Notes: generated by a model from the letters alone, not told the origin. A DNA stretch of 63,925 bases, filler included, from an uncultured bacterium (GCA_964448115.1; 3 parts of 3 records of this genome joined end to end with filler, not necessarily neighbours in it), one strand, 5' to 3'. Positions 5,501 to 58,800 are shown, counted from the whole stretch's first letter. Made by a program: numbers and translations.

Positions 5501-7224
5501 TCATTTTCAATGCCTTGAATGCAAGGGGAGCCGGTCTTTACCATTTCTATACCCTCGGCACTGACCTGGTGGGCAACGAGGAGCACAAGGAGACCATCCA
5601 GGGAGAAACGGTGCTTTTCGATATACCTATTAGCGATAACTTCGAGGCAGGGATGGGGGACTGGGAGCCTTACCAAGAAAGTAACTCCAATATCCTCGAT
5701 ATGCCACCGGTTTCCGATGAACAGGCGCACTCCGGCAATTATAGCCTTAAGTTCGAGCAGCCAGCAGAGGGTATTCAGTATATGATGGATGAACCTCAAA
5801 CCACCAAGCATTACTATTACTTCTACGATACCATGAGCGATGGGAGCTTCTGGGGAGGCATTTATACACTGGGCGGAGAAAAGGTAGGTGGCGAGCGGGA
5901 GATCGGGGTCAACTTCGGGCTGTTCCCATTCACTTATAGCATAGGGATCGGCTTTAATAAAGGTTGGGTCGATACCGGCATCCAGAGGACGCCGGGGTGG
6001 CATCTGGTCGAGTTCACCTACCAATACGAGCAGGGAGAGCTAGTACTATACATATACCTGGAATCAGGGGGTGTGCTGCACCAGGTCTATCGGGAGACAG
6101 GGGCTGGAGCCTATAACAAGATCTTTTACACTACCCCGTCCGAGGAGCCGGGGCTTTACTATCTCGATGATGTCAATGTGGATACAGAAGCTCCCCTATG
6201 GCAAGGCTCGCAGGGGATACAAACCATAGCGAGTCTGCCCGACTGCTCGGTGGGGATTCTATGGTCGGTTGCCGAGGACAGGTACTCGCCGCCGGTGAGA
6301 TACCGGCTGTACAGGGGAACCCAGCCGGATGACCTGCATCCGATCGCAACCACATACTACCCCAGTAAGATAGATCGCGGTTTGCAATCCGGAAGCGAAT
6401 ACTTCTATAATGTAAAGGCATTAGATTCATCACCGATGGCTAATATCGCCGATAGCAATGTAATAAAGAGCGTTGTGGCTGTAGATATGACATCGCCGGT
6501 GCTTAGGAATCCCGCCCCGCGCTATGGAGAGGATAACATCCTGCCCAACGCCTATACTTCGGTTGACATGCTCGATTTTTGCAGCGGAGTGGATGCCGGC
6601 TCCATCGCGGTCTGGATCAATAACCACCGGGTCTATCCGCTGCTTATACCGATATATAATGGCTATCGTATAATTTATCACCCTGATGAGCCTTATGCTC
6701 CGTTATCTTATGTCTCAGTTCGTATCGTAGGCTGCGATTTCGAGGGCAATTGCCTCGATGAGCAGTACAACTTCCGCACCCGGGCATCGACTGCTGAGCC
6801 GATAACGCCAACCATGACGCCGATAGCCACCGCCACCCGGACACCAACGCCATCGGCATCGATAACTGCCACCAATACAATGACGGCAACACCGACCGCA
6901 ACAGCCACCCCACTGCCGAGCGCATTTTTGATCGCTGGATACTGGGATACCTATATCAAGCACGATACAAGCAGCCTGCTAAGTATAGTCGCATTGCCGG
7001 TCAAGCTCTCCATCGATGAATGTTCGGTGAGCATCTACTTTGGAGGCATGGATACCGGCGTTGATCTGCTCCCGGATACGCCGTTCGGGGGGGCATTCGG
7101 GATGGTTGCTGTCATCGAGGCTGGGAGCGTACCGAGCCAGAGGTTGCTGGTCGAGTATGCACTGCAACCACGGGATTCAACCGCATTGTTGGATTTTTTC
7201 CCCTATCTTAATGTGGGTGAATAA
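2563..7224 (+). CDS. Large secreted modular protein: two DUF1565/right-handed beta-helix modules, Pro/Thr linker, FN3-like and Ig-like domains, conserved C-terminal PYL domain
   Basis: Signal peptide; TITDAL/TISEAL..GxY..EQFPL starts; GGGI/GGAI beta-helix repeats; SPCIDxG..DIGA motifs; ends FFPYLNVGE. Confidence 0.8.
4495..5050 (+). repeat. Pro/Thr-rich low-complexity linker (~185 aa)
   Basis: Imperfect TP/TPT repeats at the protein level. Confidence 0.85.
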
Positions 7225-7279
7225 TAAGCAAATCAATGGATTTAATGGAAACCATTTCATATAGAAAAGGAGATGCAAA

Positions 7280-8722
7280 ATGAAAATCGTGAAGAAGTTG
7301 CTTGTAGGATTAACTGTTCTTGTGATTGTTGGTTTAGTTGTTGGTATTCTCTATTACTTCCACCTGACCCAAGAACCTTTCGGAAGTGCAGAAGAATACT
7401 GGGCGCAAGAGACAAGGGCTAAACTCATGGATGATGTTGTTGGACACTTCAACTACTGGCTAGGCGCTATTGATGTCATGTCTTATGCCAATGCCCCCTT
7501 TTGGAGTCCTGATGAGCCTTATCGGCTGGAGAAGTACACCGAGTGGTGTGAGCAGAACATGTATAATGAATTAATCCTGGATCGAGTTGCACACGGTTAT
7601 TATTCCGATGCTGACTACGGTTTACCAAAAAAGATGCGCGGCATTCCATTAATGGTCGCTCTGCTTGGTGCCGGTATGGCATTCCCTTCGCTCGCTATTA
7701 TCGAGCCGCAGCGCTCAAAGGAGATCTTTTGGAACATGGGTGAGCTAATAGAGTTCTTCCGCGGTCCGCAGTGTTGGATGGATTATGCAATCTATCAAGG
7801 CTGGGGAAGCCCTCTTAGGAATAATGTTATGTGGAAGGGACCATGTATATTTCTAGAGGGGCTTTATGAGCTTATGACTGGCGATAAACGATTTTCCGAG
7901 GAGTTCGTTGCCCTATGCCGCAACCTGTATGAGCTGCATGTTCAGAATATGAACCACCCCAACCATCCTTATGCCGGGGTATGCTGCGAGCCGAATCATT
8001 GGTTTCCGCAATGCAATTCATTCGCCATACTCGGATTGCATATCTATGATAAACTTTATGGGGTAGATGCAAAGCATGGCGTTAAAATCGGGGAAATATA
8101 TGCCCGTGATGTAATTAAGCAGTATAAGGAAAAACTTAGCTCGAAGAAGACCGGATTAGTCTGTCGTAAATATCATCCCCGCGGCAATCAGGTCGATAAA
8201 TACTCGACCACCTTCACAAATGCTCTAGTTATGATGAATTTACATTTCCTTGAGCCTGAATTCACCGAGAAAGGCTACAGGTATCTTCGTGAGAACTTTA
8301 TTAGGGATCTTCCACTTGGCTTAGGGAGTTATGTCATAGAGAATCCTCAGGTTGATGAGAACGGCAATCCGATAAATATAGAATCAGATGATCCTCCTTC
8401 ACTAGGAGAAGCCCAATATGCAATCACATCCATGTTTGCAGCAGCCAGGGAATTCGATGATAAGGAAACCTGGGACAAATTGAACAAGGGATTAACAAAC
8501 CTGTTCCACCCCCATTACACGCAATCGGAGCTTCGTTTCGATGATACCAATCCAGAGATAATCGGTGCTGATGGTTTCACTTTGGGTAAGCTATTGAATG
8601 GGTTCAGCGGATGGATAATGTACGCAAAGGTTCATGTTGGGTGGGAAAAGATATTAACTCACGATTGGTCCAAACACCGGACACCACAGGGAGATTTCCT
8701 GGACACCTCTCCTTGGAGGTAA
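7280..8722 (+). CDS. Linalool dehydratase/isomerase (Ldi/LinD)-like protein with N-terminal signal anchor
   Basis: NNVMWKG..LYELMTGDKRF..AGVCCEPNHWFPQCNS..LHIYDKLYG matches the recalled Ldi core ENIMYKG..LYQLVTG..GIVCEPDNYFVQCNS..YDRLHG. Confidence 0.7.
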   Translation: MKIVKKLLVGLTVLVIVGLVVGILYYFHLTQEPFGSAEEYWAQETRAKLMDDVVGHFNYWLGAIDVMSYANAPFWSPDEPYRLEKYTEWCEQNMYNELILDRVAHGYYSDADYGLPKKMRGIPLMVALLGAGMAFPSLAIIEPQRSKEIFWNMGELIEFFRGPQCWMDYAIYQGWGSPLRNNVMWKGPCIFLEGLYELMTGDKRFSEEFVALCRNLYELHVQNMNHPNHPYAGVCCEPNHWFPQCNSFAILGLHIYDKLYGVDAKHGVKIGEIYARDVIKQYKEKLSSKKTGLVCRKYHPRGNQVDKYSTTFTNALVMMNLHFLEPEFTEKGYRYLRENFIRDLPLGLGSYVIENPQVDENGNPINIESDDPPSLGEAQYAITSMFAAAREFDDKETWDKLNKGLTNLFHPHYTQSELRFDDTNPEIIGADGFTLGKLLNGFSGWIMYAKVHVGWEKILTHDWSKHRTPQGDFLDTSPWR

Positions 8723-8725
8723 TAT

Positions 8726-9637: not shown

Positions 9638-9720
9638 CCCACCTCTATAAGTCCTTGAGGGACTTGAAGCCACGGACCTTTAGTCGCTTTATCAATTTAT
9701 CTCCTTTAAGAAAGAGATGT

Positions 9721-10687: not shown

Positions 10688-13015
10688 CTACCTTAGATGA
10701 TAGGTATATTGCAGCATCACCAGGAGGCTAGGTTGGTTGTTGACTATTTCTCTGGGGGTGCTGGCATCGAAGATATCGTCGTACATCTCGTACTTGTTGC
10801 CAAAGACATTCTTGACCACTCCCACCAGGTGGAAATCTCGGAATCTAGCCCCCAGTGCAACATCGGTGAAATGTACCTCGCTGTCCCAGAAATCTATCGA
10901 ATGAAGCTTGGTTTGCTGCCTGATAGGCTGATCATCGAACCAGTTGTAGCCCGAAAAATGGCTCATTACAAGCAGGTAGAGCAAATCCTTGTAATGGAAT
11001 CTCAGCTTCAGGTTTGCGCCATTGGTGGTGAAGACAAACCTTCGATAGTAGGTCTCATAGCGCTGATAGCCGTTCTCCTCGCTAGGTTCCATATCCCTGA
11101 CCGCCTCCTCGGAGAAGTTCTGCCGGCGATGCCAAAGCCCCAGTCCAAGGTCAAAATACCTCCCTAGGCGAACATCCAAGCTATACTCGGCTCCGTGTAC
11201 AACACGCAATGGATTGTTGGTGAAGTATGACTGGTACAGGACGCGTGTAAAGGGGCTATCCTTGAAAAGTATGTAGTAGTCCAAGCCGCCCATATCATAC
11301 TCGATGAAGAAGTCGGTATGCGTATTGTTGTACTGTATGAAATTCTTCACCTCATAGCCGAATAGAGTCATTCTATGGCTGAAGAACGGGCTGGGATTGT
11401 GTTCTCCGATGATCTCTGCGATCCGCATCTCTTCGGGCTTCAAGTCGGGATTACCGTGAACCTCTGCGGTGCGATACTGAAAGTCGGAGTATAGCTCGAC
11501 AAAAGAAGGTGCTCGGAAGGCTCTACCGAGGTTTAGCTTCAGGGTGAAGACAGAGGATGGATAGTAAACAGCGCTTAATCTAGGGGAGAAGAATCCACTG
11601 TAAACGCTATGCTGATCATACCTAGCTCCAGCTAGCAAATAGAAGCGTGATGAAAACTCGTGCTTATCTTGAATATAGACCGCGACATTTGCTGCATCAT
11701 GCGCATCGTATCCAAGAACGCTAGCATATTTATCTCCTTCGGGCTGGTCATCGATGAGGTCATAGCGATACTCGGCGCCGGCAAGGAAGCTGTTTTTGGT
11801 GGAGAACTTGGCGCTATAAAGCACCTCACCAGCTATTCGGCGCTGCACCTGCTTTATGGCCCGCATCGGAAAGTCGTTCTCGATCGCTTTTACCAGCGTA
11901 TCAAAGGTCACCGAGTATGCGCCTAATGCTGCCTGTGGATCGGTGCTCTCCAGGTACTTTAGCAGATCGCCTATATCAACCTCACCGGTGGCTCTATATG
12001 ATGCAAGCGCCTCCTCCCAGGCACCGGCACCAAAGACGAATACATTCAGTCCGCTGATATCCTCTATTTTAGCTATATCATAGACCTCGTCCATCTGGTT
12101 TACCGTGTATCTGCCCTCATCGATGTAACTGCGCAGCTTGAGGTTGGAGCTGCTCCCCAGCTCGATATCGAACATAAGGTCGCCGTAGTAACGCTTGACC
12201 TCCATCTCATCCCTTGGGGTGGGAAAGTTTACCACCCCGGGCAAACCTGCCTTATAATCAAACAGGGAACATTTGAACGAGAAGTGCTCGTAATCGATGC
12301 GCGCCCAGAAGTGGCGATCCCTATGCTCATTGTTGTGCCAGTGCAGGTCCTCATCCACCAGGGATGGCTCCTTTTCTGCGCTCTGACCATCGGTGCTCAA
12401 GGTTCTCAGGGTAAGCGCGGTCTGCACCCCTTCTATCTCCTGACCGGCTGAGATGATCACGAAGCCGGTATTGTAGGTACCCCCGCCGGCTTTGGTGTAG
12501 ATGGCATTCATCTCCATGCCAGTCTTGGTGATGATGTTGATGACCCCCGCAAATGCATTGGCGCCATACAGCGAAGAGCCGGGTCCGGTTATCACCTCGA
12601 TCTGCTTGATGTTATCTATCGGGGTTCGAAGGTCGGCGTAGAAGCTGCTTGAGAAGTTGTCGTTAACCGGCCTGCCGTCTATCATGAGAAGGATGACCTG
12701 GTTGAATGAGTTGAATATCCCCCGCAAGAACAGATTGCTGCGAGACAACTGTTTGGGAACCATCTCCATCGAGTTGATGTACTTTAGGGCATCAGCCAGG
12801 GTCAAGGCACCCATCTCCTCCAGCTCCTCATGGGTTAGGACCGTAACCGTCCCCGGCGCGGTTCTCACCGGCTCCACTTCCTTGGAGGCAGTGGTGATAA
12901 GCTCATCGGTATCGAGGAAGAATAGGCTATCCTCTCCACCTAAGGCTGAGCCGACAATAATGAGCGAGATAAGCAATGGTATTGATACAGGGATTCTCGT
13001 TCTCATAACTATCAC
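10688..13015 (-). CDS. TonB-dependent receptor
   Basis: Plug domain (TASK, IDGRP, IEVITGPGSSLYGANAFAGVINIITK); AFRAPSFVEL; GNPDLKPE. Confidence 0.9.
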   Translation of the reverse strand: MIVMRTRIPVSIPLLISLIIVGSALGGEDSLFFLDTDELITTASKEVEPVRTAPGTVTVLTHEELEEMGALTLADALKYINSMEMVPKQLSRSNLFLRGIFNSFNQVILLMIDGRPVNDNFSSSFYADLRTPIDNIKQIEVITGPGSSLYGANAFAGVINIITKTGMEMNAIYTKAGGGTYNTGFVIISAGQEIEGVQTALTLRTLSTDGQSAEKEPSLVDEDLHWHNNEHRDRHFWARIDYEHFSFKCSLFDYKAGLPGVVNFPTPRDEMEVKRYYGDLMFDIELGSSSNLKLRSYIDEGRYTVNQMDEVYDIAKIEDISGLNVFVFGAGAWEEALASYRATGEVDIGDLLKYLESTDPQAALGAYSVTFDTLVKAIENDFPMRAIKQVQRRIAGEVLYSAKFSTKNSFLAGAEYRYDLIDDQPEGDKYASVLGYDAHDAANVAVYIQDKHEFSSRFYLLAGARYDQHSVYSGFFSPRLSAVYYPSSVFTLKLNLGRAFRAPSFVELYSDFQYRTAEVHGNPDLKPEEMRIAEIIGEHNPSPFFSHRMTLFGYEVKNFIQYNNTHTDFFIEYDMGGLDYYILFKDSPFTRVLYQSYFTNNPLRVVHGAEYSLDVRLGRYFDLGLGLWHRRQNFSEEAVRDMEPSEENGYQRYETYYRRFVFTTNGANLKLRFHYKDLLYLLVMSHFSGYNWFDDQPIRQQTKLHSIDFWDSEVHFTDVALGARFRDFHLVGVVKNVFGNKYEMYDDIFDASTPREIVNNQPSLLVMLQYTYHLR

Positions 13016-18349: not shown

Positions 18350-19066
18350 TCAAATAGCCTCGTTTCCATCCTGGGGGATGCATTTTTTAACCAATACCAC
18401 ATATTGGATCAAACCGAGGTTTCTGATCAGAGGTACCCTATAAAATAACCGATTGATAAAACGAGATACAAGCGGGATATGCATCGGCAACAATGCTCGA
18501 TACCCCCTGGAGCTAACGGCAAGTCCATTGTTTTGAGCTAATGATCTAAGTTTCCTTAGCCCTATCCATTTATGTGGACCCTCTGGCATTTTGAGCCTAA
18601 GTGCCTCTAGGATGTGCAAAATGGGCGACCATAGCGGATTAGCCCAGGAGATGATCACATTTGTATTGCTTGAGACTATACGCGATAGTTCCCTCAATGA
18701 GCTAGCAGGATCGTACAGATGCTCCAGAGTGTCGGGTAGAATTATCCACTCGAAGCCGCAATCGCTTGCAAAGGGGAGGTTTTCCCCCTCGGCTTGAACA
18801 TAGTGGAATTGATCATATTTCTGTCTAGCCTTTTGTAGCATGGGAGCGCTTATATCGATGCCGACTCCGAGTGCAGGTGATAGGCATTTGAGTATATCAC
18901 CGGTTGCGCAGCCGACCTCGAGTATCGATGCCTCTCCTGCATCCCTGATCAGCTCCTTATATAGCCTCTTCAGCTCGCTATGGTAGTACCAATTCTTACT
19001 TTTATACCTGTCATAGTCGGCAGAAACGCCATCGAAATGTTCGATTATCCTATCCCTGAGGGTCAT
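18350..19066 (-). CDS. Class I SAM-dependent methyltransferase
   Basis: ILEVGCATG, GIDISAPML, DTLEHL. Confidence 0.85.
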   Translation of the reverse strand: MTLRDRIIEHFDGVSADYDRYKSKNWYYHSELKRLYKELIRDAGEASILEVGCATGDILKCLSPALGVGIDISAPMLQKARQKYDQFHYVQAEGENLPFASDCGFEWIILPDTLEHLYDPASSLRELSRIVSSNTNVIISWANPLWSPILHILEALRLKMPEGPHKWIGLRKLRSLAQNNGLAVSSRGYRALLPMHIPLVSRFINRLFYRVPLIRNLGLIQYVVLVKKCIPQDGNEAI

Positions 19067-19667
19067 TGGAATGTAGTTCGACCAGCTCTTTTGCTTTATT
19101 CAAAATCTCTGCCAGATGGGGGCATTTTTCATAAGCCTTTTCCACATCAAGATCATCGAAGTATTTCTTTGATTGATAGCCTTTCTTGTAATTAACCAAA
19201 TCCATCAATATTTTTGCAGGTGGCGTATCGAAGTTGATATTTTCTGGATTTTTACTCTTATACTTGGAAATTTTATTTGACATTTTGCCGAAAATTTTAG
19301 GATCAGAAAATAGCCAAGCCTCGGTCTCGAATACAGCAAATCCCTGGAAAAAACGGTCTCTGTAATCACTTGGTACCAGTTCCAGAATCCTTTTTTTAGC
19401 GAAAGAAATTTTCTCTTTTACTGTTTCGCCCTTTTTATACTCTTCGGGAAGTCCATAAAAGTCCAGTATTCCAATAACTGCGACAACCTTTTTATCCTCT
19501 AATTGCATCGTTACCTGTTGAGCTAGATCCTTTAGATATTTAGATGCACCTTTAAAGTTCCTTGCTTTTACCCCTATTGAAGGCGATATCCTCTTATCAA
19601 GCCATCGTTTGATAACCCGGGGCAAATATATTTCAGTCTCTCCTTCAACAAGCAGAATAATCTTCAA
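19050..19667 (-). CDS. DUF4276 family protein (TOPRIM-like)
   Basis: LLVEGETE, DFYGLP, ETEAWLFSD, PENIN, KCPH. Confidence 0.8.
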   Translation of the reverse strand: MKIILLVEGETEIYLPRVIKRWLDKRISPSIGVKARNFKGASKYLKDLAQQVTMQLEDKKVVAVIGILDFYGLPEEYKKGETVKEKISFAKKRILELVPSDYRDRFFQGFAVFETEAWLFSDPKIFGKMSNKISKYKSKNPENINFDTPPAKILMDLVNYKKGYQSKKYFDDLDVEKAYEKCPHLAEILNKAKELVELHSNDPQG

Positions 19668-20848
19668 TCTATATCCTCCAGTTCACCAGTTACCATCAAT
19701 TCACCTAGCGTGTAGTGCTCTAGCCACCTTTTCAATTCATCACCAGTGCGTCTTTTCAACACGGTTTTTCCATCAACATTCTGCACAACAGTTACGCATC
19801 CCTCTACATCGGAGAACGCATCGAGGAATAGTGGAGATTGTGTCGCGAAGATGACCTGTGTTCGCTGTGCAGCTTCTTTCGCTAACTCGGCTATTATAGG
19901 AAACATGGATGGATGCAAGGATGTCTCCGGCTCATCATAAGCTATCAGTGGTGGTGCATTCGGATTACCTAGCACAGTTATCAGCATCAAAAAGCGCAAA
20001 GTCCCATCAGATAATTGAGAGGCAGGGACCGGGTTTGCCAGTGATTGCCAACCTAAAGCTAGTTGGATCTGCCCATCTGCGGCAGGCGGGAAATTGATCT
20101 CCTTGTATTCGGCTCCAAAAGCCTGATACATTGCAGAATCCAATTTTTCCTTGAATTCCCTGGATCCCTGGCACAAATTATAAAGCACCGAGACCAGGTT
20201 CTCCCCCCTGGGCATCACCTGGCGCTCCACTCTCATAACTGCTGCTTTTCTAATGCTTGTCAAGTCTATATCTTGGTATATCTTAATGTTTTTCAGATAT
20301 TGTTTGAAGCTAAAAAGAACCGGATGATTGATTGGATCGGCAAGTTGCGCCAGCAGGGCTTCATCGGCGACTATATCCTCACCCTTTGCTTGAAGCTTTC
20401 TTTCTTGGATGTCAAATACATAAGCATAAGTCTTTTTCCTTTCAAGAAAAATCATCGGTTTATCTTTTTTCTTCTGCTCAAATAGAGTTGGATCTGTCAG
20501 ATACTCACTCCCGATAACAAAATTGGGGCTTTTTGCTAACTGCTCAAGACAGAGTTCGTATTGCAGTCTCCTTTTATTTCCATAGGCTTTGCTATCAAAA
20601 ATCTCAGTATCGAGGAAGAAGGTCGCCATATCTACCTCTCGATTCCATGAAAGCAGGGACATACCACCCTCTTTACGAATGAACTCAGAAAGATTCTCAG
20701 TTCCAACCTGGGACAATAGTTGCAAGGCGCGCAGGATATTCGACTTGCCGGCTCCGTTGGGACCAATCAGGATATTGAGCAAACCTGGCTCCCAATCGAC
20801 ATCAGTCAGCGACTTGAAGCCCCTTATTTTTATCTGATATATCGGCAT
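19664..20848 (-). CDS. ABC/AAA_21-type ATPase
   Basis: IRGFKSL, GPNGAGKSN, LSDGTLRFL, DEPETSLHP, ATQSP. Confidence 0.9.
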   Translation of the reverse strand: MPIYQIKIRGFKSLTDVDWEPGLLNILIGPNGAGKSNILRALQLLSQVGTENLSEFIRKEGGMSLLSWNREVDMATFFLDTEIFDSKAYGNKRRLQYELCLEQLAKSPNFVIGSEYLTDPTLFEQKKKDKPMIFLERKKTYAYVFDIQERKLQAKGEDIVADEALLAQLADPINHPVLFSFKQYLKNIKIYQDIDLTSIRKAAVMRVERQVMPRGENLVSVLYNLCQGSREFKEKLDSAMYQAFGAEYKEINFPPAADGQIQLALGWQSLANPVPASQLSDGTLRFLMLITVLGNPNAPPLIAYDEPETSLHPSMFPIIAELAKEAAQRTQVIFATQSPLFLDAFSDVEGCVTVVQNVDGKTVLKRRTGDELKRWLEHYTLGELMVTGELEDID

Positions 20849-21264: not shown

Positions 21265-23193
21265 TTGAATCCTGAAATTCAAACATCGAACCGAAATAAA
21301 GTGCTCTTCGTGCTTGCGCCCATGTGGCACCATGAGCATGCGCCGCTGGCTGCTGCATCGCTTTGCGCTGCGGTCAAGCAAGCCGGTCACCAGGCAGAAT
21401 TCCTCGACCTTAACATAGAGACCTTTCGGCGTGTGGAGGAATCATACCATGGCTACTGGCATCCATCCGAGGCTTATCACTGGAGTTCCCGGCAATTCTT
21501 CAACAAACTTCCCTTTATGAACCAGCAGCTTATCGACTGGTATGTGGGGCGCATAATGGAGCAAGACGCCGATATCATCGCATTTAATATCAACATCGCC
21601 AACAAATTTGCGGTCCTTGATACTATCAGGCAGCTAAAAACGAAGGCGCAGCAAACATACATCATTGCCGGGGGACCGGGGTGTCGCAGAGAAAAAGACT
21701 TTATCGATGATGCCATTGATGCGGGCATAGACGCGATAATATGGGGCGAAGCTGAAAAGACAATCGCTGAGCTAATCTGCCACTTCGATGGCGGTCTGAG
21801 ATCTCCACTTGCCGGGATGAGCCTGCTTGATGATGGCGGTGAGCACTATGGCGGAGTTCGAGACCTTATTAAAGATCTTGATCTGTTACCCTTGCCCGAC
21901 TTTAGCTCATTTCCATTTGAACTTTACCCGTTCAAGCATAAGGTGCTCCCCTTCGAGTCAAGCCGAGGCTGCATCAAGCGCTGCACATTCTGCTATGACC
22001 ACATTTACTGGCAGGGATACAGGCAAAAAAGCCCCCAGCGCCTCCTAGCCGAGGTCAAGCGCCTAAAGGAGCTATACGATGCCGAAGCTCTCGTCTTTAC
22101 CGATTCTATTATAAATGGCAACATGGGGAAGCTGCTCGAATTGGCCAGATTGCTTATCCAGGAGGGGATAGAAATCAGGTGGGGTGGATTCGCTGCCCCC
22201 AGAAGAGAGTTGACTGCGCAGGCGTGCAAGACGCTTAGCGAGGCAGGCTGCTTTAGGCTCGATTTCGGCGTGGAGAGCGGGTCTCAGCGAATACAAACAG
22301 CTATGGGCAAGAAGGTGAAGATCGACCTGGTCTCGCAAAGCCTCAAGGTAGCAGCCAAAAGCGGCATCATGGTCTATGCCAGCTTCATCGTTGGCTATCC
22401 TGGGGAGAGCTGGCTCGACTTCATTAAGACGCTTCGTTTCATCCTGGTTCATCGCCGATATATCTACAAGATAAGCTCGACCAATGTGATCGGCTTTTTA
22501 CCCGGCACCCTTTTATCGAAAGAGCTAAAAGAGGGGGAACTGATGGGTGGTAGGCGCATGGTCGCATATTTAAGGTTGCGCTTGTTGAGATATTGGGAAA
22601 GGCTTTTATTCAAGCGAAGGCTCAACATACAGGAGGCATACTTTGAGCACCTGGAGCGAGCTTATGCTCACCAGGAGAAAAAAGAACACCCCGCAGCGTT
22701 AGTGGCATATAAGAAGGCGGAAAAATTGCTAAGAATTATGCATCGAAGGTATCGAACCATATTCATTGTTCCTGATACTAAGCCATTCGATCTTTATCAT
22801 TTAGGCGCTGAGATATATATAAAATTGCGCAATTATCCCAGGGCATTGAAGGCTTTAGTAAATGCAATATGCTATAAAAAATGCCCCTGGAGTGCGGTTG
22901 AGATATCAAGGTTGGCATTTCTGCTCAATAAAAAAGTTATGGCTTTTTATTGGGCGTATCAGGCTCTGTTTTGGGCAGGGGATAGAGCGAGTGTTCATCG
23001 CGCGGCGGCGGGAATATTCTATGATCTAAATCAGCCGATGCAGGCTATCTGGGCATATCGCGCCGGGCTTAATTGGATCTCGAAGGATAAAGCTGCTAAC
23101 CTACTAGCTGATGTCGAAAAAATGGAAATCGGTGAGAATATCCAAGAGATGATAAACGCTTATGAGACCATCTATGAGGCTATGGAGCGATGA
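21265..23193 (+). CDS. B12-binding domain radical SAM protein with C-terminal TPR-like region
   Basis: LDLNI, IIAGGP, GEAE, SSRGCIKRCTFC, GVESGS, FIVGYPGE. Confidence 0.9.
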   Translation: MNPEIQTSNRNKVLFVLAPMWHHEHAPLAAASLCAAVKQAGHQAEFLDLNIETFRRVEESYHGYWHPSEAYHWSSRQFFNKLPFMNQQLIDWYVGRIMEQDADIIAFNINIANKFAVLDTIRQLKTKAQQTYIIAGGPGCRREKDFIDDAIDAGIDAIIWGEAEKTIAELICHFDGGLRSPLAGMSLLDDGGEHYGGVRDLIKDLDLLPLPDFSSFPFELYPFKHKVLPFESSRGCIKRCTFCYDHIYWQGYRQKSPQRLLAEVKRLKELYDAEALVFTDSIINGNMGKLLELARLLIQEGIEIRWGGFAAPRRELTAQACKTLSEAGCFRLDFGVESGSQRIQTAMGKKVKIDLVSQSLKVAAKSGIMVYASFIVGYPGESWLDFIKTLRFILVHRRYIYKISSTNVIGFLPGTLLSKELKEGELMGGRRMVAYLRLRLLRYWERLLFKRRLNIQEAYFEHLERAYAHQEKKEHPAALVAYKKAEKLLRIMHRRYRTIFIVPDTKPFDLYHLGAEIYIKLRNYPRALKALVNAICYKKCPWSAVEISRLAFLLNKKVMAFYWAYQALFWAGDRASVHRAAAGIFYDLNQPMQAIWAYRAGLNWISKDKAANLLADVEKMEIGENIQEMINAYETIYEAMER

Positions 23194-24293
23194 GCGAATA
23201 CCTGGTTAAAAGACTGTCTGATTGCCTTTCCAAGCAAAGCGAGCCACCGCTTCACACCATTGAGATATCTATCACCGACCGCTGCAATCTGCGCTGCTTA
23301 TACTGCCATTCGATCCAGGGCAAAAGGAACCCGGATGGTGAGATCGAACTTGGCAGGCTAACTGACTTTGTCGATGAAGCTGCTGCAATGGGTACAAAGG
23401 AGTTCAGGATACCAGGCGGTGGAGAGCCTTTCATTAGGAAAAAAGAGACCATGCAAGTTATTCGCCAGCTTAAGGAGCATGGACTTGTTGGAGATATCAC
23501 TACTAATGCTGTCCTGCTGGATGAGCAGGATATACATCAGCTCATTGATCTTGGCTTGGATAAGATCATCGTGAGCTTGGATGGCGTCTCCTCAAAGACA
23601 AATGATTTATTGCGTGGAAGCGGATGCCTGGAAAGGGTGATAAAGAGCCTGGAGAAGATGGCAAATATAAAGGCATTAAAAAACTCAACATTGCCCGAGA
23701 TAGCTATAAACATGGTGTTGACCAAAGTGAACTGGCAGGAGATACCATCTATTATCAAGCTGGCACACTCGCTCCAGGTAAGCCAAGTACTGGTTCAGCC
23801 GATGATAATCTATCATCGCAAGGGTAAAAAGCTAAGGATCAAGCAAAGACATAAAGACAGCGCCAGGTTTAATGATATGCTCAAGACAGCCAAGGCGATT
23901 GCTTATGTAAAGGGGATACAGACCAACCTAGAGCAATTTGAGATAAAGAAATCGGAACATGACCACCAGTTAACCGATGGTAATCCGTGTTTGAATGAAA
24001 TCGATAAAGGTAAACATGAAAAAGAGAACAGGAATCTTGAATACCAGTGCTATCAGCCGTGGTACCTGATGGCGATAAATCCCAGAGGCTTTTTGACCCC
24101 TTGCTCGATCATCTTCGAGGAGAAGGTCGCTTATAAGCCTGGCAATCTCAAGGATATCTGGCTTGGAGAATACTTCACTGGCTTGCGTAACGAGATCGCC
24201 AGTGGAATAATACCCTCTGTTTGCTCAAACTGTTGCCAGGGGCTGCTCGAGGTAAACCAGAGACTACGAAAACAGTTGGCAGCAATCAGTTGA
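23190..24293 (+). CDS. Radical SAM protein with SPASM/twitch domain
   Basis: CNLRCLYC, GGGEP, SLDG; C-terminal CYQPW..PC..CSNC. Confidence 0.9.
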   Translation: MSEYLVKRLSDCLSKQSEPPLHTIEISITDRCNLRCLYCHSIQGKRNPDGEIELGRLTDFVDEAAAMGTKEFRIPGGGEPFIRKKETMQVIRQLKEHGLVGDITTNAVLLDEQDIHQLIDLGLDKIIVSLDGVSSKTNDLLRGSGCLERVIKSLEKMANIKALKNSTLPEIAINMVLTKVNWQEIPSIIKLAHSLQVSQVLVQPMIIYHRKGKKLRIKQRHKDSARFNDMLKTAKAIAYVKGIQTNLEQFEIKKSEHDHQLTDGNPCLNEIDKGKHEKENRNLEYQCYQPWYLMAINPRGFLTPCSIIFEEKVAYKPGNLKDIWLGEYFTGLRNEIASGIIPSVCSNCCQGLLEVNQRLRKQLAAIS

Positions 24294-29177: not shown

Positions 29178-29794
29178 CTACTCCTCTACCTCCAAATAAG
29201 GCCAGAGGTAGCTAACTGCATTACCCTCGTTGACCGCAGCTAACTCAAATAGGTATGGCACAGGTGTCATCCCGGGACCGACCCATAGGTTCTCGAACCC
29301 AAACAAATAGTATGGATCGAACAACCCGATAAACGGTAGATTTACACCTAAGCCAGACTGGTTGTAGTAGATCTCCACATAATCTACAGCTATGGGATTA
29401 GGATCGCTCACCACCGCATAAAGCGCAAAAGGACCGCCATCGACCGATGTTATCCTGGTGTACATATAGCCTGCGCAGACGATTACTGGCTTCTCATAGG
29501 GTGTTGGAGTTGCCGTCAGCGTCGGTGTTCTAGTCGGAGTCCCCGTGGGGACAATTGTTTTTGTTATGGTTGGAGTGGGAGTCGCTGTTTCAAGCTCCAT
29601 AGTCGGGGTATAGGTCGGCGTACTGCTTGGTCGCATGGTCGGGGTTCTTGTATAGGTGGGGCTAGCAGTCGGGGTCTCTGTCAAGCCTGTCGTCTCGGTT
29701 GGCGTGAATGTCGGCGTGCGGCTCGGAGCGAGTGTTGCCGTACTGGTCGGCGTGGCGCTGGGAAGTTGGGTCAAGGTCATGGTCGGCGTGGCGG
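29178..29794 (-). CDS. C-terminal part of a Pro/Thr-linker protein ending in the conserved PYL domain (truncated by contig end)
   Basis: TP repeats run into the gap; [16 protein letters not shown]. Confidence 0.8.
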
Positions 29795-43446: not shown

Positions 43447-46400
43447 CTACTTTGTAACTGCAAGGTATGGAAAGGCAGCGCTACTACGCCCTGAGCCATC
43501 GGTTGCTATAACCTCAAGCAGCGTATTAGATCCACTCAATCCCGGCGGGATATGGTAAGTAAGTCCGAATACCATGTCATCCGCCTCGAGATCGCCGTGC
43601 TTGCCATCGTCGAATAGGTAAATGCCGGCTGGTGCTCCCTGGAAATAGATCTCGGCAACAACCACGCGCTCATCTTGTGCTCTCGCTTCAGTTATAGCAA
43701 CAATATGCAGCATTCCACCATCTATTTGGCTGAGTCGAGATTCCATGTATCCCCCAAGCATAACGAGTGGCGGCTCATGGTCTGTTATATGCGTGGAAGT
43801 TGGCGTCATGCTCGGATAGGGAGTTTGGGTCGGCGATGCTGTGGCAGGTGCCATGGTCGGCGAGCTGCTCGGAGTAGCCGTAGCCCGTGGTGTGGGAGTT
43901 AATGTCGGGGGCTGATAGATGCCGCAAACACTGATGTCATCAATGTTCCAACCGCAGCGCACATGGCGATCATCAGTAGGTCCCATCACCCAGCGGATGA
44001 GGACATTTGGATTACCATCAGCATGGCTGCTTATATCATAGCTCACATCTGTCCAGTTCATATCATTAACCCCTGCGCTATTCTCAAAGATGCGATGCCA
44101 ATAAAAGCCGTCGCTGCTTATCTCGATAGCTGCTATATCGGCTGGAGATGAATAAACCCCCAGCCAGCGCTTAAAATTGAGCGTGCAGTTGGTAAGTCGG
44201 CTGCAATCTATGGGAGTAGTAACCAGGTACGAAGGGAGCATGTTATTGGGATACTCGCCCTCAAGGTTATAGCCCAAGACCTTTTTGCCTGTGAATCCAG
44301 ACAGGGGATCAACGCTTTCATCAATCACTCCCATGCCCCTTGGCTTTCCATAATTCCAGCCTTGATCGGCGCTGAAGCCAGGATCAATGTTCAAGTTGAA
44401 CTCGTGCAGACAGCGATAACTACTGTAGGTTACCGCAAACTGGGCTGTAAGCTCCCTGGTGCCAAAAGGTTGTCCGTCTATAAATAGATCGAGATATACA
44501 CTATGCCCCTGGGGGAAATCGGGATCAATACTGATCTGCAAGTGTGGAGAAAAGCTTGTCTTTACTTGACCGGCAACTACCTTGCCCAGTGTGGTTTGAC
44601 TGTTTTGAAGCCCTATCAATGGATTGTCGCACAAGGCGCTTATTGAGACCGTGTAGGCATCATCATCGCCTTGATTATAAAGACTGATGGGGACAAGCAG
44701 GGTCTCACCAGGATCCGGGATGCCATCGTGATCGCCTACGATCTCATTAAATTCGAGGCTATCGATGATCAGGTCCGGCGCCTCGATTTCAATATTTATA
44801 GGGACCTGTCCGCTTCCCTGGGCACTGCTCCAGATGATATTTCCAGCGATAATCTCGCCATCGGGCGCGCTGCCGGCAATAGATATCCTCGGATAAGGCG
44901 CCATATTTATGGCTGTCTCTCCCTCGCCTATGTTCTGGAACCCTATCCCATCCTGGATCACCTCGACATAAGGGCTATCGATGACAAGCACCCCGCTGGC
45001 AGCTTGTAGGTCAACCCCGACATTGTGAACCGAGACAATTATATCGATGGTCTCACCGGCGCCGGGCGCTGCATCGCTATTACCAGCCACTTCGCTGAAT
45101 TGAACATCTCGCAGTCGCAGGTTAGGCTCCAGGCAGGAGTACAGCCCATACAACTCGATATCATCGATGTTCCATCCGCAGAACCGATAGTTATGGTTGG
45201 TCGGTCCCTGCTCGAAGCGAAGATAAACCGTCTCCTGATTGTCAGCATATTTACCGATATCAAGCCCATGTATAGTCCACCTGGGGTCTGAGACCAGGGA
45301 GGCGCTATTTGACCATACTTCCTGCCAGTGCTTCTTGTCTATTGAGATGCTAATTGCTGCCCTGTCCTTGCTTCCGGTGCTTAGCCACCTGGCATATCTC
45401 AGGTGAACATCTTCCATTCCCATACAGTTTATCGGTGTTGAGATGATGCCATACATTGGCATGTAGTTCTCGAAGTCCCCCTGCAGGTTGTATCCTATGA
45501 CATACTGTCCGCTGTAGGCTGCAAACGGATCCCGGTTTCCGCTGCTTCCCCCCCCGCCCTGTGGCATCCCGAATTCCCAATCGCCGCCGGTCTTTATCCA
45601 GCCGGGGTCGCTATCTAGTGGCTCGCGGTAGAACACATAATAGTTGCGTGTATAGAACGAATAATACTCCCCGGAGTTGAAATCACGGGAGACATTTTGT
45701 GCCCGGTCCTGGCAGACTACCTCGAAGAATACCTTAGTACAAGGCTCTATGCCATGGATCGATACCTGATGACTGGTCGTATAACTCTTCTCGGTAACCG
45801 AGAACTGGAGATCCCTGGTCAAGCCGTAGTTTACCCCGCCGATACATGGCTCATCAGTAGTAAAGGCAATGGTCGCTCCCTGGTTGGAGATGAATTCAAC
45901 CCGAAGGTCTGATATCTGCGGTGGCAAACAGTCTATAATAGCGGAGTCGTTACACATTAGCGGCGCCTGGCTGCCATCATCCTCATCATAGTAGTGCACC
46001 TCCAGGAGGTCTCCATGCTGCACCTCGATTGTTTCCCCCATCTTTTTTTGTGCAGATGATCCCGGGGAGATGGTATAGAATGACCCCCTGAAGATTCCCG
46101 AATCGGGCGGATTCTCCTGCACAAGGGTGAATATACCATCCGGCTGGGTGGTGCTTGTAACCTGTACCTGATAGGTCTGGGATCCGAGCAGATCCACATC
46201 GGAGAGAATCAGATCCACCTCGCTGTTACAACCATAACTGCTATTAAGGAGAATGATCTCCCCTCGTGAACTGCCGATCACACCGCTGACCACCAGTGCA
46301 TAAGGCTGAGGTCCCATGGGGATGAAGTTCGCCTCGACCCTTATCAGATATCTGCCCGGCTGGGGGGCATTGACCTGTACGCACTCGATGTTGTTGCGGT

Positions 46401-51138: not shown

Positions 51139-51148
51139 GCTTTTGGCG

Positions 51149-53642: not shown

Positions 53643-55787
53643 TTATCGATTGCGATAAAATGCACCCTCTATGGTGAATGAGTACACCTCGGTCGGCATA
53701 GTATTGCCGGCGTAGTCTGATGCATCTAGCGATACGGTTACGACCTGTTCGTAGTCAAAAGGCTCCGATGGGTTGTAGGATACTAGATACCCGTATTCGA
53801 TCGGTGAGAGGGTCGGGAAATGCTGTATGTCTTCGACCATGAAGATAATCGAGGCTGGATTGACACCGGAAACAAGATCGAGCAGCTCAAGTGAGATATC
53901 GGTATCCCTCGACACCCTTGTTTCATTGGCATCAGGAACCCTGTTTTGTACAAAGGGTGGATCGTAATCAACCGGCGTTGCAGTTGGCGTCAAGGTCGGC
54001 GTCTCTGTAGGTGTAGGGGTTACGGTCGCCGTGGTAGTCGGCGTTGTGGTGGGAGTAGTAGTCGGTGTCGCGGAGTGGGATGGATTGGGTGTCTGAGTCG
54101 GTGTCGGCGTCTCGGTAATAGTAGGGGTGGCGGTCGGAGTGCCTGTAATGGTCGGGGTTGCGGTCGGCGTGGGAGTGATGGTCGGCGGTCCCGACTCAAC
54201 GGTCAGGTATGGCCAGCGATGGCTGGCGAAACCATGGCGATTGAAAGCCTTTACTTCGAGCAGGTAGCTCGCCGGTGCACTTGCCCCTAACCATACGCAG
54301 AAATTGTACAACCCATCACCGCGCCCGTAATCACAGCCACTCCCGTCATCCATAAGATAGACACCAAGGTGCGTATTATCGACCAGCAGCTCAACGCTGG
54401 TGATATCATCCAAGCCGGTGTTATTTTGTACATAAGCGGCGATGTGAGCCATCCCGCCAGCAGCGGCGCTAAGGTCGCTTCCCATGTAGCCGGCTATCAT
54501 AACCTCTGGTGGGGCCGGCGGTTCCTCACGTTCAACGGTAAGCGTTTTTAGATGAAAGCAGGAATCCCTTATATCGCTCCATACAAAGTAAAACTTGGCT
54601 CCGTACCCACCTAAAGCGAGATCGAGCAGCCAGTCCTCGTGCCCGCCATCAATTACCCCCCCATCTGGAGGGAGCGGCACCAAGGACGCAGCGGACTGGA
54701 CATCGCTACCGTTTGTAACCATGTAATAGATCTTCTCCCAGATATGAAAGGTTAAACAGCCGGTTACATCATTGAAGACAATCTTAGGCTGGAAATCGCC
54801 CGGATAGCTCCTGTCCTCGTTGAAGTTGTCGCAGGTCCAGTCGCCGCTTAGACTGCGAGAATAGTAAACCCCTTTCAGCTCAGCATGGTTGGATACCCAA
54901 TCCATGGACATAAATACCAGGTGAGGATTATTGCTTCGGTCAACCGCTACATCCGGTGCCTCTGCATAACCATAAGCCAGGCAGGAGACCACGGGATCCT
55001 GCCAGACCCCGCCGATGCGAGCCCGGTAAACTATCTCGTTGAAGCCGGCTACGCTTCCGACCGTCTGCCACCATACCACATGTAGATCATCAGCGGAGTC
55101 AATGGCAATCTGGGGTCGCTTTGGCTTTATCGCGTCCGATGCTGAGATCACATAATCATCGGAGCCATCCTCTGGGTGCCATCCGGTAGCATCTTTATAC
55201 CGCATCACCGTGCGCAGTTGATCTGCCGGCGCCTCGCTGTACTGCTCCTCGGCAACAACATATACCACATCCCTTGAATCGATGGCGATATCAGCCCAGC
55301 TTACCCAGTTGAGCGGTCCGCGGATGATGACCTCGTTCTCCGGCTGCCAGGCTCCGCCGGAGATGAAATTATAATAAATAGGTCCCACTGCATATCCAGG
55401 ACCGTCTGGCGCCCAGACTATGTGCGCGCTATTTTGGCTATCAGTGTAAACCTCTGGATGCCCGAAGGCATACATTGCAGTCGGATCCCCGGGCAAGACC
55501 TCAGGCAGCGAGGTATCATAAAGCGGCTCGCTAACCCCATCCCATGTAGAGGTCAGGTACTTGCGGTAACGAACGCGACTCAAAGCATCCAGCCAGACCA
55601 GGTGCATGTCCCCTGCCTTATCCAACCATATATCCGGCTGCTTATCGCCTATATAAAGGTTGAATTCCTCTCCCCATGTCTGCTGTTGAGCAAAACAATC
55701 AACCGGCAAACAAACAACTCCAAGTAGAAAAAACATAGCAATCATCAAAAAATGCAGCTCAAGACCCGATGACCTCATCACAACCAC
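53643..55787 (-). CDS. Secreted protein: BNR-like propeller region, internal PYL domain, Pro/Thr linker, C-terminal Big_5-like Ig domain
   Basis: Signal peptide; repeated P.IAIDS..LHVVW; AGYMGS..DDG..WPYLTV; DPPFV..P..VSRDT.I..D..SGV. Confidence 0.8.
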
Positions 55788-55892
55788 CTTTATATAAGGT
55801 CAGTATTATGCATCCTGCCACACGACAGAATACTACTCCCTAGCCCCCTCCCATTAAAAGAAGAAATACTATGTTATCCCTGGTAATCCTGT

Positions 55893-58800
55893 TTATTCCT
55901 TGCACTCCAAGTATGGCCAGACCGAGATGTTATTCTCGTAGTCATAAGCGTGGATGGTGAGCGGATATATTCCGACTGGCGCTCCGCCTCCCACTCCAGT
56001 GGCAAACATGTAAAGCCTATCGCCAGCGTTGAAGTCTCCCTGGGTGCCATCATCGACCAGCGAAAGCCCGGTGGGGAACCCCTGGTAGTAAACATCGGCT
56101 CGTCGAAGATCCTCATCCGGTATGTAAGCACAGAGCACGAACCTGCCACCGTAGGTCGAGGTTACATCGGTATCCCAGTATCCACCGACCATGATGTAAG
56201 GAGCGATGCGATCCTTGGGGGTGGCTGTCGGCGTAGGGGTTGCATTCGGATCCGGAGTGTTGGTTGGAGTTGGGGTCGGGGTGGCATTGGGATCTGGAGT
56301 ATCGGTGGGCAATGGGGTCGGAGTTTGGGTTGGAGTCGGAGTCGGAGTTACTGTCGGGGTCGGCGATGGCGTAGGCTCTGGAATGCTGAAGGTATATCTA
56401 TCCGAGACGGTGCGGTTATAGGACTTATCGAACGCCTCGATGCGATACACGATCATGCTCTCCCCCGGCTGATCCTGTAACCTGCCTTGATAGTGATCGC
56501 ACTGCACCCGTGCCATATCCTTCTTGATCTGCACCATCTGCCCGTCATGATACCTCTCGAATAGCAGGTGCAGCTCGCCGAGTGCGACATCATCGTAAAC
56601 CGGGTTGGCATCGAATATGAAGCGGGGCAGCCACTCGGTATCTCCAACAGGTCCTTGCACTTCTTCTATCACCGGTGGCGAGGTATCGGCCGGCGCAGTA
56701 GTGAAGTAGAGCACACCGTAAGGTCCATCTCCCTCCTCAAATGGAGTGCCATAGATGTCTGATAGCAGCATTGCATGGAGGATATAAAGCTGATCGTTAG
56801 CCGAGTCGGTTACATAAAGCAGTCCCGCTGGATGCAGGCTCATCTCGGTCGGATTGGGTACCGTGGTAGGAGCGGAGGCGACCAGTACGCTTGCATTGTT
56901 CACATCGAGCACAAAGAACTTACCGGCAGGCTGGTTTATTGCAAATAGCCTGTCATTCACCGCATCGAGTAGCAGTCGGCTCACATAACCGCCAAGGAAC
57001 GACCTGCCGAGCAGCTCGAAGGTATCCGGCGAGTTTATAGTGCCCAGAGCGGTAACCGAGCCGTTGCTCTCATCGGTGATGTAAAGGATATCCTTCTCCG
57101 GGTTGTAGAGGATCTTGTCCGGATTGATGATATCGTATCCGGCAAGGTCGATCGTCTTAATAAAGGCTGGCTTGACCGGCGATGAATCGAAGATCTTCAC
57201 GCTGCCATTACCCTGGTCGGTTACATAGATGAGCCTCTTGTAGGGATCGATGGCTAGATCCTTGGGAGCTGACAGGCTCTGGCTGGTGTAATCCACCAGT
57301 GCGGGCAATGTGGTATTTATATCCAGGACATCGATCGAGCCCCTGGTGCGGTTCAAGGCATACCCGAAGTCTCTGATATAATTGAAGATTATCTCTTCGT
57401 AGCTGCTAGCTTCGGGCACTACCGGCGCCTCGTTGATCAGCGCTATCTCAGGATGGATGTTAAACACGGCAATACCGCCGGGGCCACCGGACCCATCGCA
57501 GACCACATATAGTTGATAGTTCTTGCGGTTGTAGAAGATCCCCTTGGGTAGCGTATTAGCGCCTGTCGTGTATGTCCCCGGCTCGGTCGGTTCCATGGTG
57601 AATGCCTTATATATATTGATCTGCGACTGGTTGTAATTGGATACTGCTACATAGTTATTCACCGGTGCAGTTTCCTCCTCGTCGGCGCTAGCTAATAGCA
57701 CAGAAGAGGTCATCGGCGGTATCTCAAGCTCCCCATCCAGCCACAAATACAAGGTTAGGTAATCCCCCTGACCGCCGTTGAGCAAGGCACCCTGGATGAC
57801 CGGGGTCAAGCCCCAGAACTCGACATTGCTAAGCTCATCGAGCAGCGGATTTATCAACTCGGTCAGGTTGAAAAAGCCACCGGCGAAGTAAAGCAGCGCC
57901 CGCAGACCCATTATCAATTCCTCCTGGGTGGTATGTTCCAGCACTCCCATATCGCTGAAGTAGGCATCGACTATAGGTTGACCGGTTTCGGGATCCTTGA
58001 GGAAGTCAGCCTTGATCTCGAACTTATTGGTGGTCATGTTCCAGTCCGGCTCGATCTGCAGGGTGATATCGACTGCTGCCGAGAAGGCTTTGACCGCGGT
58101 TCCTTCATCGACCACATTGAAAGTAAGCTCCAGGGCATCGGTGCTTATGAGGAGTCCATCTTCTTGACTCATGTAAGCCTTTGGACTCTCAATCGGATAT
58201 AGGTCTATGGTTACCGGCGATGCGGATGGGAAGTGTTCCAGAAGCTCGGGGACAAGAATGGCTATAAGCCCGGCAGTCAACCTGATCGGGATATCATCCG
58301 GAAGGATACAATTATCGACTGTCATCTGCAAAAACTCGGTCTTAGCTGCAAGAAGTAGTATCTCGTTGAGCAGATCATCCGATAATGAAAAGGCAGCATG
58401 GTATTGACGCTCGGTACCCGGCACCTGCAAGCCATAGGGGGGCAAGATATTGGGCAGCGTCCTGTCGAATGGCAGCGCAACCGTTGCAAGCAGAGGATAA
58501 AGCCCGGCTTCCAATGCCAGGTAGTATCCGTTGCTGTCTGCCACCTCAGTATCGATGTGAGAGCTCTGGAAGCACGGAGATGAAGCCAATGCCTCGGCAA
58601 GCAGGTCCATCACATCGAACAGCGGTTCACCATTGAATATAGCCCCGATTTCCTCCTCGATTGCAGCAGCAGCATATTCCTGTATCAAGCCGGGGAAGAC
58701 TGTATCGATTAAAAACTCAATAATGCTTCCAACTAGTCCGCTGAAATTGGCATCTATATCGGTAATGGTCGTCTCCATATCCTGTGCCTCAAGCCCGAAC

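Follow-up and report, generated by a model that had tools for sequence, protein, structure and literature searches.

GY-WPYL, a lineage-restricted Ig-like domain on exported proteins of an uncultured bacterium, and its possible self-pairing

The window analysed here is a stretch of 63,925 nucleotides (filler included) from the genome of an uncultured bacterium (GCA_964448115.1). It consists of assembly contigs C47 and C48, which are joined artificially, and features are not readable across the join. Five genes of the window, termed A to E, each encode one copy of a domain of ~110 amino acids (aa) that starts with the consensus P-x-[IV]-x-x-[AG]-G-Y and ends with [WF]-P-Y-L-x-[VC]-x-x. The domain is termed GY-WPYL here and its copies carry the letters of their genes (Table 1). 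The original prediction, made from the nucleotide sequence, regarded it as a candidate surface-sorting or docking system.

Pairwise identity of the other four copies to copy A is just 22%–29%. A hidden Markov model (HMM) made from 190 copies in the rest of the genome, with the window left out, was searched against the six-frame open reading frames (ORFs) of the window. It matches precisely the five ORFs, with nothing further at E ≤ 10, and thus the likeness of the five copies is far beyond chance. The positions in the original prediction agree to within a few codons, and translation bears out its start and end strings as well as an internal GG in four of the five copies and the LxDDGxx(G/C)D pattern in three. 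Also as described there, copies A, B, C and E are C-terminal after a Pro/Thr linker, whereas copy D is internal and precedes the linker.

Signal peptides had been assigned to the four complete genes (A, C, D and E) and are seen in each, as judged by eye and with a crude hydrophobicity rule. The cargo assignments stand in part. Pfam matches show the beta-helix in A, the S8 subtilase in C and the BPI-like domain plus propeller in E, but the BNR propeller proposed for D was not recovered; gene D cargo has no Pfam match and shows only a sub-threshold NCBIfam match to “PDIAV lipoprotein”. The further modules of gene C include a sub-threshold match to choice-of-anchor J (NCBIfam). The gene B ORF runs into the contig end and the N spacer, thus it is truncated rather than short. 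Genes A and D have a second small domain in common, which lies beside their Pro/Thr linkers. The shared sequence is SGV[DN][PA][AG]SI...Y...V.V...D..GN, and there is a weak OmpL47-type match in D only (E 0.012).

Table 1. Domain copies, genes that carry them and other features of the window, counted from its first nucleotide
Feature	Position	Strand	Remarks
Copy A	6901..7221	+	extreme C-terminus; most divergent, without GG and without DDG loop; HMM E 1.3e-12
Copy B	29181..29501	-	extreme C-terminus; degenerate DDG loop; HMM E 4.6e-25
Copy C	43450..43782	-	extreme C-terminus; HMM E 2.6e-30; NF041940 22.5 bits
Copy D	54192..54524	-	internal, aa 422-532, linker after; HMM E 5.8e-27
Copy E	55896..56219	-	extreme C-terminus; HMM E 2.8e-30; NF041940 15.7 bits
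Gene A, 1553 aa	2563..7224	+	signal-peptide-like start, DUF1565 beta-helix regions, terminal GY-WPYL domain
Gene A, long Pro/Thr tract	4480-5061	+	
Gene A, second small domain	6400-6780	+	
Pro/Thr/Ser-rich linker preceding copy A	6778..6927	+	
Gene B fragment	29178..29794	-	Pro/Thr linker and terminal domain; 5′ part missing at contig end
Gene C, 1619 aa	43447..48306	-	signal peptide, S8 subtilase, further modules, terminal domain
Gene C, Pro/Thr linker	43768-43923	-	
Gene D, 714 aa	53643..55787	-	signal peptide, N-terminal part without family, internal domain, small C-terminal domain
Gene D, second small domain	53646-53950	-	
Gene D, Pro/Thr linker	53955-54206	-	between internal domain and small C-terminal domain
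Gene E, 1120 aa	55893..59255	-	signal peptide, LBP/BPI/CETP-like domain, NHL/lactonase-type propeller, terminal domain
Gene E, Pro/Thr linker	56205-56399	-	
Artificial N spacer with ttaattaattaa	29795..29894	.	joins assembly contigs C47/C48
Ldi protein (linalool dehydratase/isomerase-like, PF18566)	7280-8722	+	directly downstream of gene A
TonB-dependent receptor	10688-13015		
AAA_21 ATPase and DUF4276 protein	19050-20848	-	394 aa (AbiEii/OLD-like) and 205 aa
B12-binding radical SAM gene	21265-23193	+	
SPASM radical SAM gene	23190-24293		overlaps the preceding gene
SAM hydroxide adenosyltransferase-type gene	24353-25174	+	followed by a TPR protein
Ribosomal protein L21 ORF, 228 aa	28402-29088	-	L21 domain at residues 1-97 only

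The genome is 3.98 Mb and 94% complete. A profile of the five copies gives at least 150 matches in it, all at E ≤ 5.5e-14 (150 of 220 candidates scored). An iterated HMM search over the ORF list of the genome, which comes from a naive caller, counts 200 domains; of the 162 ORFs that hold them, 126 are single-copy, 35 two-copy and one four-copy. The last copy ends no more than 5 aa from the stop codon in 141 of the 162, and 3 or 4 residues come after WPYL in 83 of 95 terminal copies with a recognised motif. Directly upstream there is a Pro/Thr/Ser-rich linker of at least 15 aa in 86 of 154. A signal-peptide-like start is displayed, by a crude rule, by 147 of the 153 family ORFs with a complete 5′ end versus 595 of 1645 background ORFs (≥300 aa). 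By these counts (147/153 with a signal-peptide-like start, 141/162 C-terminal), the family is strongly biased both to exported proteins and to C-termini, and a missing bias, which would have spoken against the original prediction, is thus not observed. Clustering of the last 110 aa of 2454 ORFs (≥200 aa, complete 3′ end) gives the GY-WPYL family as the biggest shared C-terminal group (140), followed by TPR (36) and histidine-kinase ends (22). The family ORFs sum to 151,327 aa, which is ~11% of the genome and about one ORF in 20. The density of five copies in 64 kb that had seemed notable is not unusual here: it is about twice the mean of the genome, 2.6 family genes in 64 kb, and the difference is not significant (Poisson P(≥5) = 0.12).

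In 53 representatives, the cargo includes S8 subtilases, propellers of the FG-GAP, PQQ, BNR and sortilin types, beta-helix proteins, PKD/fn3/Big_7 arrays and a prenyltransferase-like toroid. No Pfam family at all is seen in 18 of them. The presence of a TonB-dependent receptor in the window, together with six secretin genes in the genome, indicates a diderm cell.

Among the species genomes searched, no other belongs to the phylum of the source genome. The domain is present in one of 40 other genomes compared, all 40 of other phyla. In the phylum of that positive genome (CSSED10-310-type), 11 of 14 genomes have the domain, with 4 to 49 matches each. At E ≤ 1e-20, two genomes labelled “Candidatus Coatesbacteria” have 17 and 22 matches. 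A search of 1.84 billion cluster representatives with the profile yields only 1787 proteins at E ≤ 0.001, of which 748 are at E ≤ 1e-10 and 216 at E ≤ 1e-30. The best 150 of the 1787 include 24 from the source genome; the domain is at the end in 116 of the 150 and two copies are found in 145, although ranking of these best 150 favours two-copy proteins. A related-locus search found no relatives of the whole protein E in other genomes; with an alignment of stand-alone proteins (see below) it did retrieve related loci. Thus the family is confined to a few uncultured phylum-level lineages (three candidate ones) and is by far the largest in the source genome.

No Pfam model fits the domain. Among 43 copies at E ≤ 1 there are sub-threshold matches only, i.e. 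Big_7 in five, Big_13 in three and DUF4625 in three. The best E-value for Big_7 (PF17957) is 0.0023; its gathering threshold of 24.1 bits is reached by no copy, and copy C has no match. Big_7 and Big_13 (PF19077) have the same general strand pattern as the GY-WPYL domain, match it weakly and co-occur with it in the same proteins, but these families lack the GY, the WPYL, the acidic loop and the terminal bias.

The closest sequence model is partial. NF041940 (“choice-of-anchor X”) is a 37-position NCBIfam model with a cut-off of 25 bits. It hits the central acidic loop of the domain, LxDDGxxGDxxAGDGxY, in 33 of the 43 copies at E ≤ 1 (best 1.7e-8), and the likeness to choice-of-anchor X that had been pointed out for the DDGxxGD loop is borne out. 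Given these matches, some paralogues probably pass the cut-off. The window copies are all below it, with 22.5 bits for C, 15.7 bits for E and no match at E ≤ 0.1 for A, B and D. Moreover, the model spans only ~25 of the ~110 residues, and both GY and WPYL are outside of it. The name “choice-of-anchor” refers to a domain that is followed by one of several alternative C-terminal anchor signals. The GY-WPYL domain, in contrast, itself ends the protein in 141 of 162 cases with no anchor signal after it, and a transmembrane (TM) tail is found in one of the 162.

Distant relatives are found as 30 repeat stretches in four giant multi-repeat proteins. These match profile positions 18–103 only and are without both motifs, thus GY and WPYL are features that the family itself has added to a common immunoglobulin (Ig) core. 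The core (profile positions ~18–103, with the acidic loop) is a widespread bacterial Ig repeat of the choice-of-anchor X type, and the N-terminal strand PxIxxAGYxDT and the C-terminal WPYLxI motif are the family-specific elements. The family is new as a subfamily, but the kind of module to which it belongs, bacterial Ig-like surface domains, is very common, and NF041940 already models part of the family. As far as the profile comparisons show, the full-length family has no Pfam or NCBIfam model. No description of the full-length domain was found among the papers listed for choice-of-anchor domains and for these lineages, and the domain is not mentioned in the available portions of the main text of PMC8248873. 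The earlier description of a conserved, lineage-restricted module on unrelated exported cargo, which at full length is outside characterised families, therefore holds.

Copy C was the sequence used for structural modelling. The AlphaFold2 model, from an alignment of 43 copies, displays a seven-strand Ig-like sandwich (predicted local distance difference test score, pLDDT, 93.2; predicted template modelling score, pTM, 0.84). The family is strongly acidic, with a median isoelectric point of 4.19; the value is below 5 in 185 of 200 copies and above 8 in none. Foldseek with the single-domain model shows nothing in the PDB at E ≤ 0.001, and an exhaustive structural aligner gives generic Ig, FN3 and E-set matches only. 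SorT, a sulfite dehydrogenase, supplies the top match with its dimerisation domain (4pw3_A, Z 7.5, rmsd 3.0, 89 residues aligned). This is the Mo-co dimerisation domain (PF03404; PDB 4pw3, 1sox), which is likewise a C-terminal Ig-like domain and whose role in sulfite oxidase and SorT is homodimerisation. However, identity is 13%–17% with no sequence match, and the Mo-co domain belongs to an intracellular or periplasmic enzyme and is not a shuffled module. PF03404 matches in two family proteins (P0002 and P0042) sit on neighbouring Big_7 domains and not on the GY-WPYL domain. A PDB sequence search with the 43-copy profile gave nothing meaningful; the best E-value, 0.025, is to a cbb3 oxidase subunit.

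So generic a fold (best Z 7.5, no Foldseek match), the weak links to Big_7, Big_13 and DUF4625 and a core in common with giant repeat adhesin-like proteins are consistent with an ordinary accessory Ig domain, i.e. a passive spacer or stabiliser, or a weak binder like a carbohydrate-binding module, that was amplified by domain shuffling. The C-terminus is also the easiest site for adding a module when the signal peptide must stay N-terminal. Spacers, however, are found between domains and not after a flexible linker at a free end. One substrate would not suit so varied a cargo, which ranges over subtilases, GH31, beta-helix proteins, FG-GAP/PQQ/BNR propellers and prenyltransferase-like proteins. 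The family-specific motifs are near-invariant (G11 in 100% of copies and P105 in 99%), a stand-alone copy is conserved across phylum-level lineages (see below), and ~11% of the genome is devoted to proteins with the domain. An ordinary accessory role is thus considered improbable.

The domain is not bound to the C-terminal end. Of the 200 copies 59 are non-terminal, and 36 of the 162 proteins have two or four copies. In five proteins the domain is found right after the signal peptide, and in three to four of these five it is followed by a Pro/Thr linker and then cargo (one a GH31 glycosidase). On a tree of 195 copies (hmmalign and FastTree) the position classes are nearly randomly mixed when compared with shuffles: tandem-first copies need 25 changes versus 30.9 ± 1.4 shuffled, and N-terminal copies 5 versus 5.0. 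Distinct subtypes for first and last tandem copies were considered and rejected, as the classes barely cluster on the tree. Motif frequencies are alike in terminal and non-terminal copies. Since copies occur in tandem, internally, at the N-terminus and alone, and the position classes are mixed, a cleaved and strictly C-terminal signal is disfavoured. The proposal that the domain is a binding module rather than a cleaved signal is favoured by the same non-terminal, multi-copy, N-terminal and stand-alone copies.

The stand-alone copy is a protein of 186 aa in the source genome (G000:C4:99847-100404) that consists of a signal peptide, a variable stretch of ~50 aa and one domain. The best match in every positive CSSED10-310-type genome is also a small ORF of 171–264 aa (one lies within a 353-aa frame), and an alignment of six small ORFs shows in each the signal peptide, variable stretch and single domain. 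Across phylum-level lineages no other member of the family is as well conserved as the stand-alone protein, above all in its domain, which ends SD[LMI]WPYLT[IV]. Among 5.8 billion proteins there are just 12 homologues of this size class. In the CSSED10-310-type genomes the neighbours of its gene are a gene with a KH domain and one with a weak likeness to CP_ATPgrasp_2; in the source genome they are a peroxiredoxin-like lipoprotein, a GH31 family member and a pilin-like gene, and no conserved neighbourhood is common to the two. Alignments of tandem pairs and of stand-alone proteins show a conserved Trp that precedes the second or only domain by ~20 residues. In the model of a tandem pair it is within a short helix (residues 135–140), and it may be a further family-specific element.

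Two other members are unusual in their ends. An 814-aa ORF on the minus strand of contig C1 (C1|-|100807|103248, reverse-strand positions) has two copies followed by a hydrophobic tail and a basic end. It is the only member of the 162 with a TM tail after the domain, and is a possible membrane-tethered protein. In addition, one probable lipoprotein carries an N-terminal copy of the domain. The window copies are as originally described, without a hydrophobic or basic tail, and so differ from sortase- and exosortase-type signals (LPXTG, PEP-CTERM), which have a C-terminal TM helix and basic tail. No sortase was matched in the genome, where the control worked, and no PEP-CTERM, where the control was silent; there is one weak exosortase-like ORF.

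A known arrangement that resembles the present one is that of the secretion system of type IX (T9SS), where the C-terminal domain (CTD; PF18962/TIGR04183) is a seven-strand Ig-like sandwich on many Sec-exported proteins of diderms. The GY-WPYL domain might accordingly be an outer-membrane export signal that is recognised in the periplasm by a translocon and possibly removed later. The layout is the same (Sec signal peptide, C-terminal seven-strand Ig-like sandwich, many diverse proteins, diderm cell). The RgpB CTD is described in PMC4804311 as an Ig-like sandwich that dimerises by C-terminal strand swapping, and hence the dimer prediction reported below is compatible with an export signal as well. 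The fold alone does not define a family, however, and there is no sequence match between the two domains. The GY-WPYL domain is also found in tandem, internal, N-terminal and stand-alone positions, and in lineages outside Bacteroidota. The 59 non-terminal copies, the 36 multi-copy proteins, the five N-terminal copies and the interchange of positions on the tree all speak against an export signal, as does a stand-alone copy that has no cargo to export. A T9SS tail (PF18962) was detected neither in the five window proteins (E ≤ 0.1) nor in the genome (E ≤ 0.001), and SprA (TIGR04189) has no match in the genome and none in 14 control genomes; these two negatives are weak because the controls for both were silent. 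Family genes are not enriched near the six secretin genes, with 2 within 10 kb versus 4.8 expected and 7 within 20 kb versus 7.8. An export signal of this type is thus very unlikely.

The closest analogue of the GY-WPYL module would be the dockerin. Type I dockerins (PF00404) are likewise small terminal modules behind a Pro/Thr linker on many unrelated secreted proteins. Most occurrences, though not all, are at the C-terminus, and they need an acidic loop of the Ca2+ type for binding. The GY-WPYL domain differs in that it is an all-beta sandwich and not a helical EF-hand pair, and that its predicted partner is homotypic and not a cohesin. The genome has just two Cohesin and two Dockerin_1 matches (dockerins at C9:67904 and C20:66562), all outside the GY-WPYL family. 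One cohesin match (PF00963, 44.6 bits) lies with a secretin (PF00263) in a single 761-aa open frame at G000:C15:33634-34680, which resembles an outer-membrane secretin that carries a cohesin-like module at its C-terminus. No secretion genes were found beside the family members of the window. A sorting or docking system, as in the original prediction, is thus not demonstrated, since neither a scaffold nor a porin or peptidase was found as partner. Computation, in the form of structural modelling, supports one partner only, the domain itself.

A homodimer prediction for copy C, with a 43-row alignment, scored 0.73 in three of three runs versus 0.01 for the best of three controls. The runs have at least 94% of contacts in common and the partner pLDDT is at least 81. 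The same mark is reached by 20 of 30 known one-chain pairs and by one of 23 known single chains, which is a rough comparison as our own alignment was used for the homodimer. The predicted interface is symmetric and comprises residues 6–20, 22, 28, 30, 32, 82–84, 86–89 and 104–111. Residues 6–20 are the PxIxxAGYxDT strand and 104–111 the WPYL motif; the rest belong to two neighbouring strands. The two motifs are exactly those by which the original prediction had recognised the family. Thirty-three of 108 positions are in the interface, and these hold 12 of the 22 most conserved positions. A model of a natural tandem pair (259 aa, 25-row alignment) shows a pLDDT of 88.3 and a pTM of 0.86, with a disordered linker of 13 residues. 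The WPYL segment, which in the single-domain model is irregular with the pLDDT falling to 53 at its end, forms a confident strand in the tandem model. The latter superposes on no extended Ig array (TMq ≤ 0.28). The conserved positions in the interface, the lack of both motifs in the distant relatives, the tandem model and the SorT match all fit self-pairing. The prediction supports self-binding of the domain without demonstrating it.

Several points weigh against self-pairing. The excess of conservation at the interface is marginal (mean 2.01 versus 1.61 bits, one-sided p = 0.052), and its Gly, Pro and aromatic residues may owe their conservation to folding alone. The dimer score expresses how confident the model itself is, with our own alignment as input, and the controls were unrelated proteins and not other Ig domains. 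Exposed edge strands of Ig domains can pair artificially in predictions. In tandem proteins the two domains may pack via the same GY/WPYL surface, the tandem model having been judged by its pLDDT, pTM and secondary structure. The SorT match is within the generic Ig range (Z < 8, with 357 chains at Z ≥ 5). Concerning export, the signal-peptide rule also flags 36% of background ORFs, and the ORFs themselves come from the naive caller.

The acidic loop is outside of the predicted dimer interface, and D64 within it is present in 91% of copies. Because a loop that is free of the interface may bind a ligand, a role as surface anchor is a serious rival that is compatible with self-pairing and could coexist with it. 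The domain would bind the cell's own envelope (lipopolysaccharide/O-antigen, capsule or an S-layer-like coat), probably via the Ca2+-loaded acidic loop, and hold the cargo on a Pro/Thr stalk. A terminal position on a flexible stalk, at one or the other end of the protein, fits this. The DDGxxGD loop is the second most conserved surface feature of the domain and is also the NF041940 motif (33/43 copies at E ≤ 1), a model which NCBI named for surface proteins. Strong acidity is often seen in Ca2+-dependent binders, but such a domain would bind anionic envelope polymers only with the help of cations. Neither a ligand nor a receptor was identified. The loop is degenerate in two of the five window copies and follows the strict pattern in just 81 of 200, and the conserved motifs specific to the family are GY and WPYL and not the loop. 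A surface anchor is therefore possible but somewhat unlikely.

The best explanation, which we hold tentatively and rate slightly below an even chance, is that the GY-WPYL domain is a self-pairing module, i.e. a dimerising or assembly tether on exported proteins, and not a cleaved sorting signal. The GY strand and the WPYL motif would form a symmetric self-association surface, and the working unit would be a pair of domains. Pairing would take place within one chain in the tandem proteins and between chains in the single-copy majority. The domain, on a flexible Pro/Thr stalk and usually at the C-terminal, sometimes at the N-terminal end of ~160 Sec-exported proteins, would couple these proteins (proteases, glycosidases, beta-helix proteins and propellers) to one another. 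Candidate partners are the conserved stand-alone copy and the few membrane-tethered members, i.e. those with a C-terminal TM tail or a probable lipoprotein start; the TM-tailed two-copy member and the probable lipoprotein could tie domain pairs to the cell. The acidic loop would probably bind Ca2+, or may bind a second ligand such as an envelope glycan. Beside the size, position, fold, export bias and taxonomic range of the family, which are established, we infer self-pairing and any role in surface retention. An extended form of the self-pairing explanation is a promiscuous homotypic “zipper”, in which each of the ~126 single-copy proteins could have as its partner any other one, the stand-alone copy or a membrane-tethered member. 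This would give a combinatorial protein coat or multi-enzyme mesh around the cell without cohesin-type scaffolds, and is regarded as unlikely.

The window also contains loci outside the GY-WPYL family. An Ldi protein is encoded directly downstream of gene A. The AAA_21 ATPase and the DUF4276 protein at 19050-20848 are by their layout a candidate phage-defence pair. The two radical SAM genes, both on the plus strand, overlap, and are followed by the SAM hydroxide adenosyltransferase-type gene and then by a TPR protein. The ribosomal protein L21 ORF has either a long C-terminal extension or a wrong start.

About one ORF in 20 and ~11% of the DNA are tied to one unnamed module, and therefore the module is central to the contact of the organism with its surroundings. 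With a full-length profile, ~1,800 proteins that databases now label as hypothetical could be annotated, and it would mark the secretome of CSSED10-310, Coatesbacteria-labelled and related genomes. If self-pairing is true, the domain would be a compact natural dimerisation tag and would represent a simple principle by which diderms without a T9SS, sortase or large cohesin–dockerin systems assemble or retain exported enzymes and adhesins. If the zipper reading is also true, this would be a new organisation of the secretome, invented in a few uncultured phylum-level lineages.

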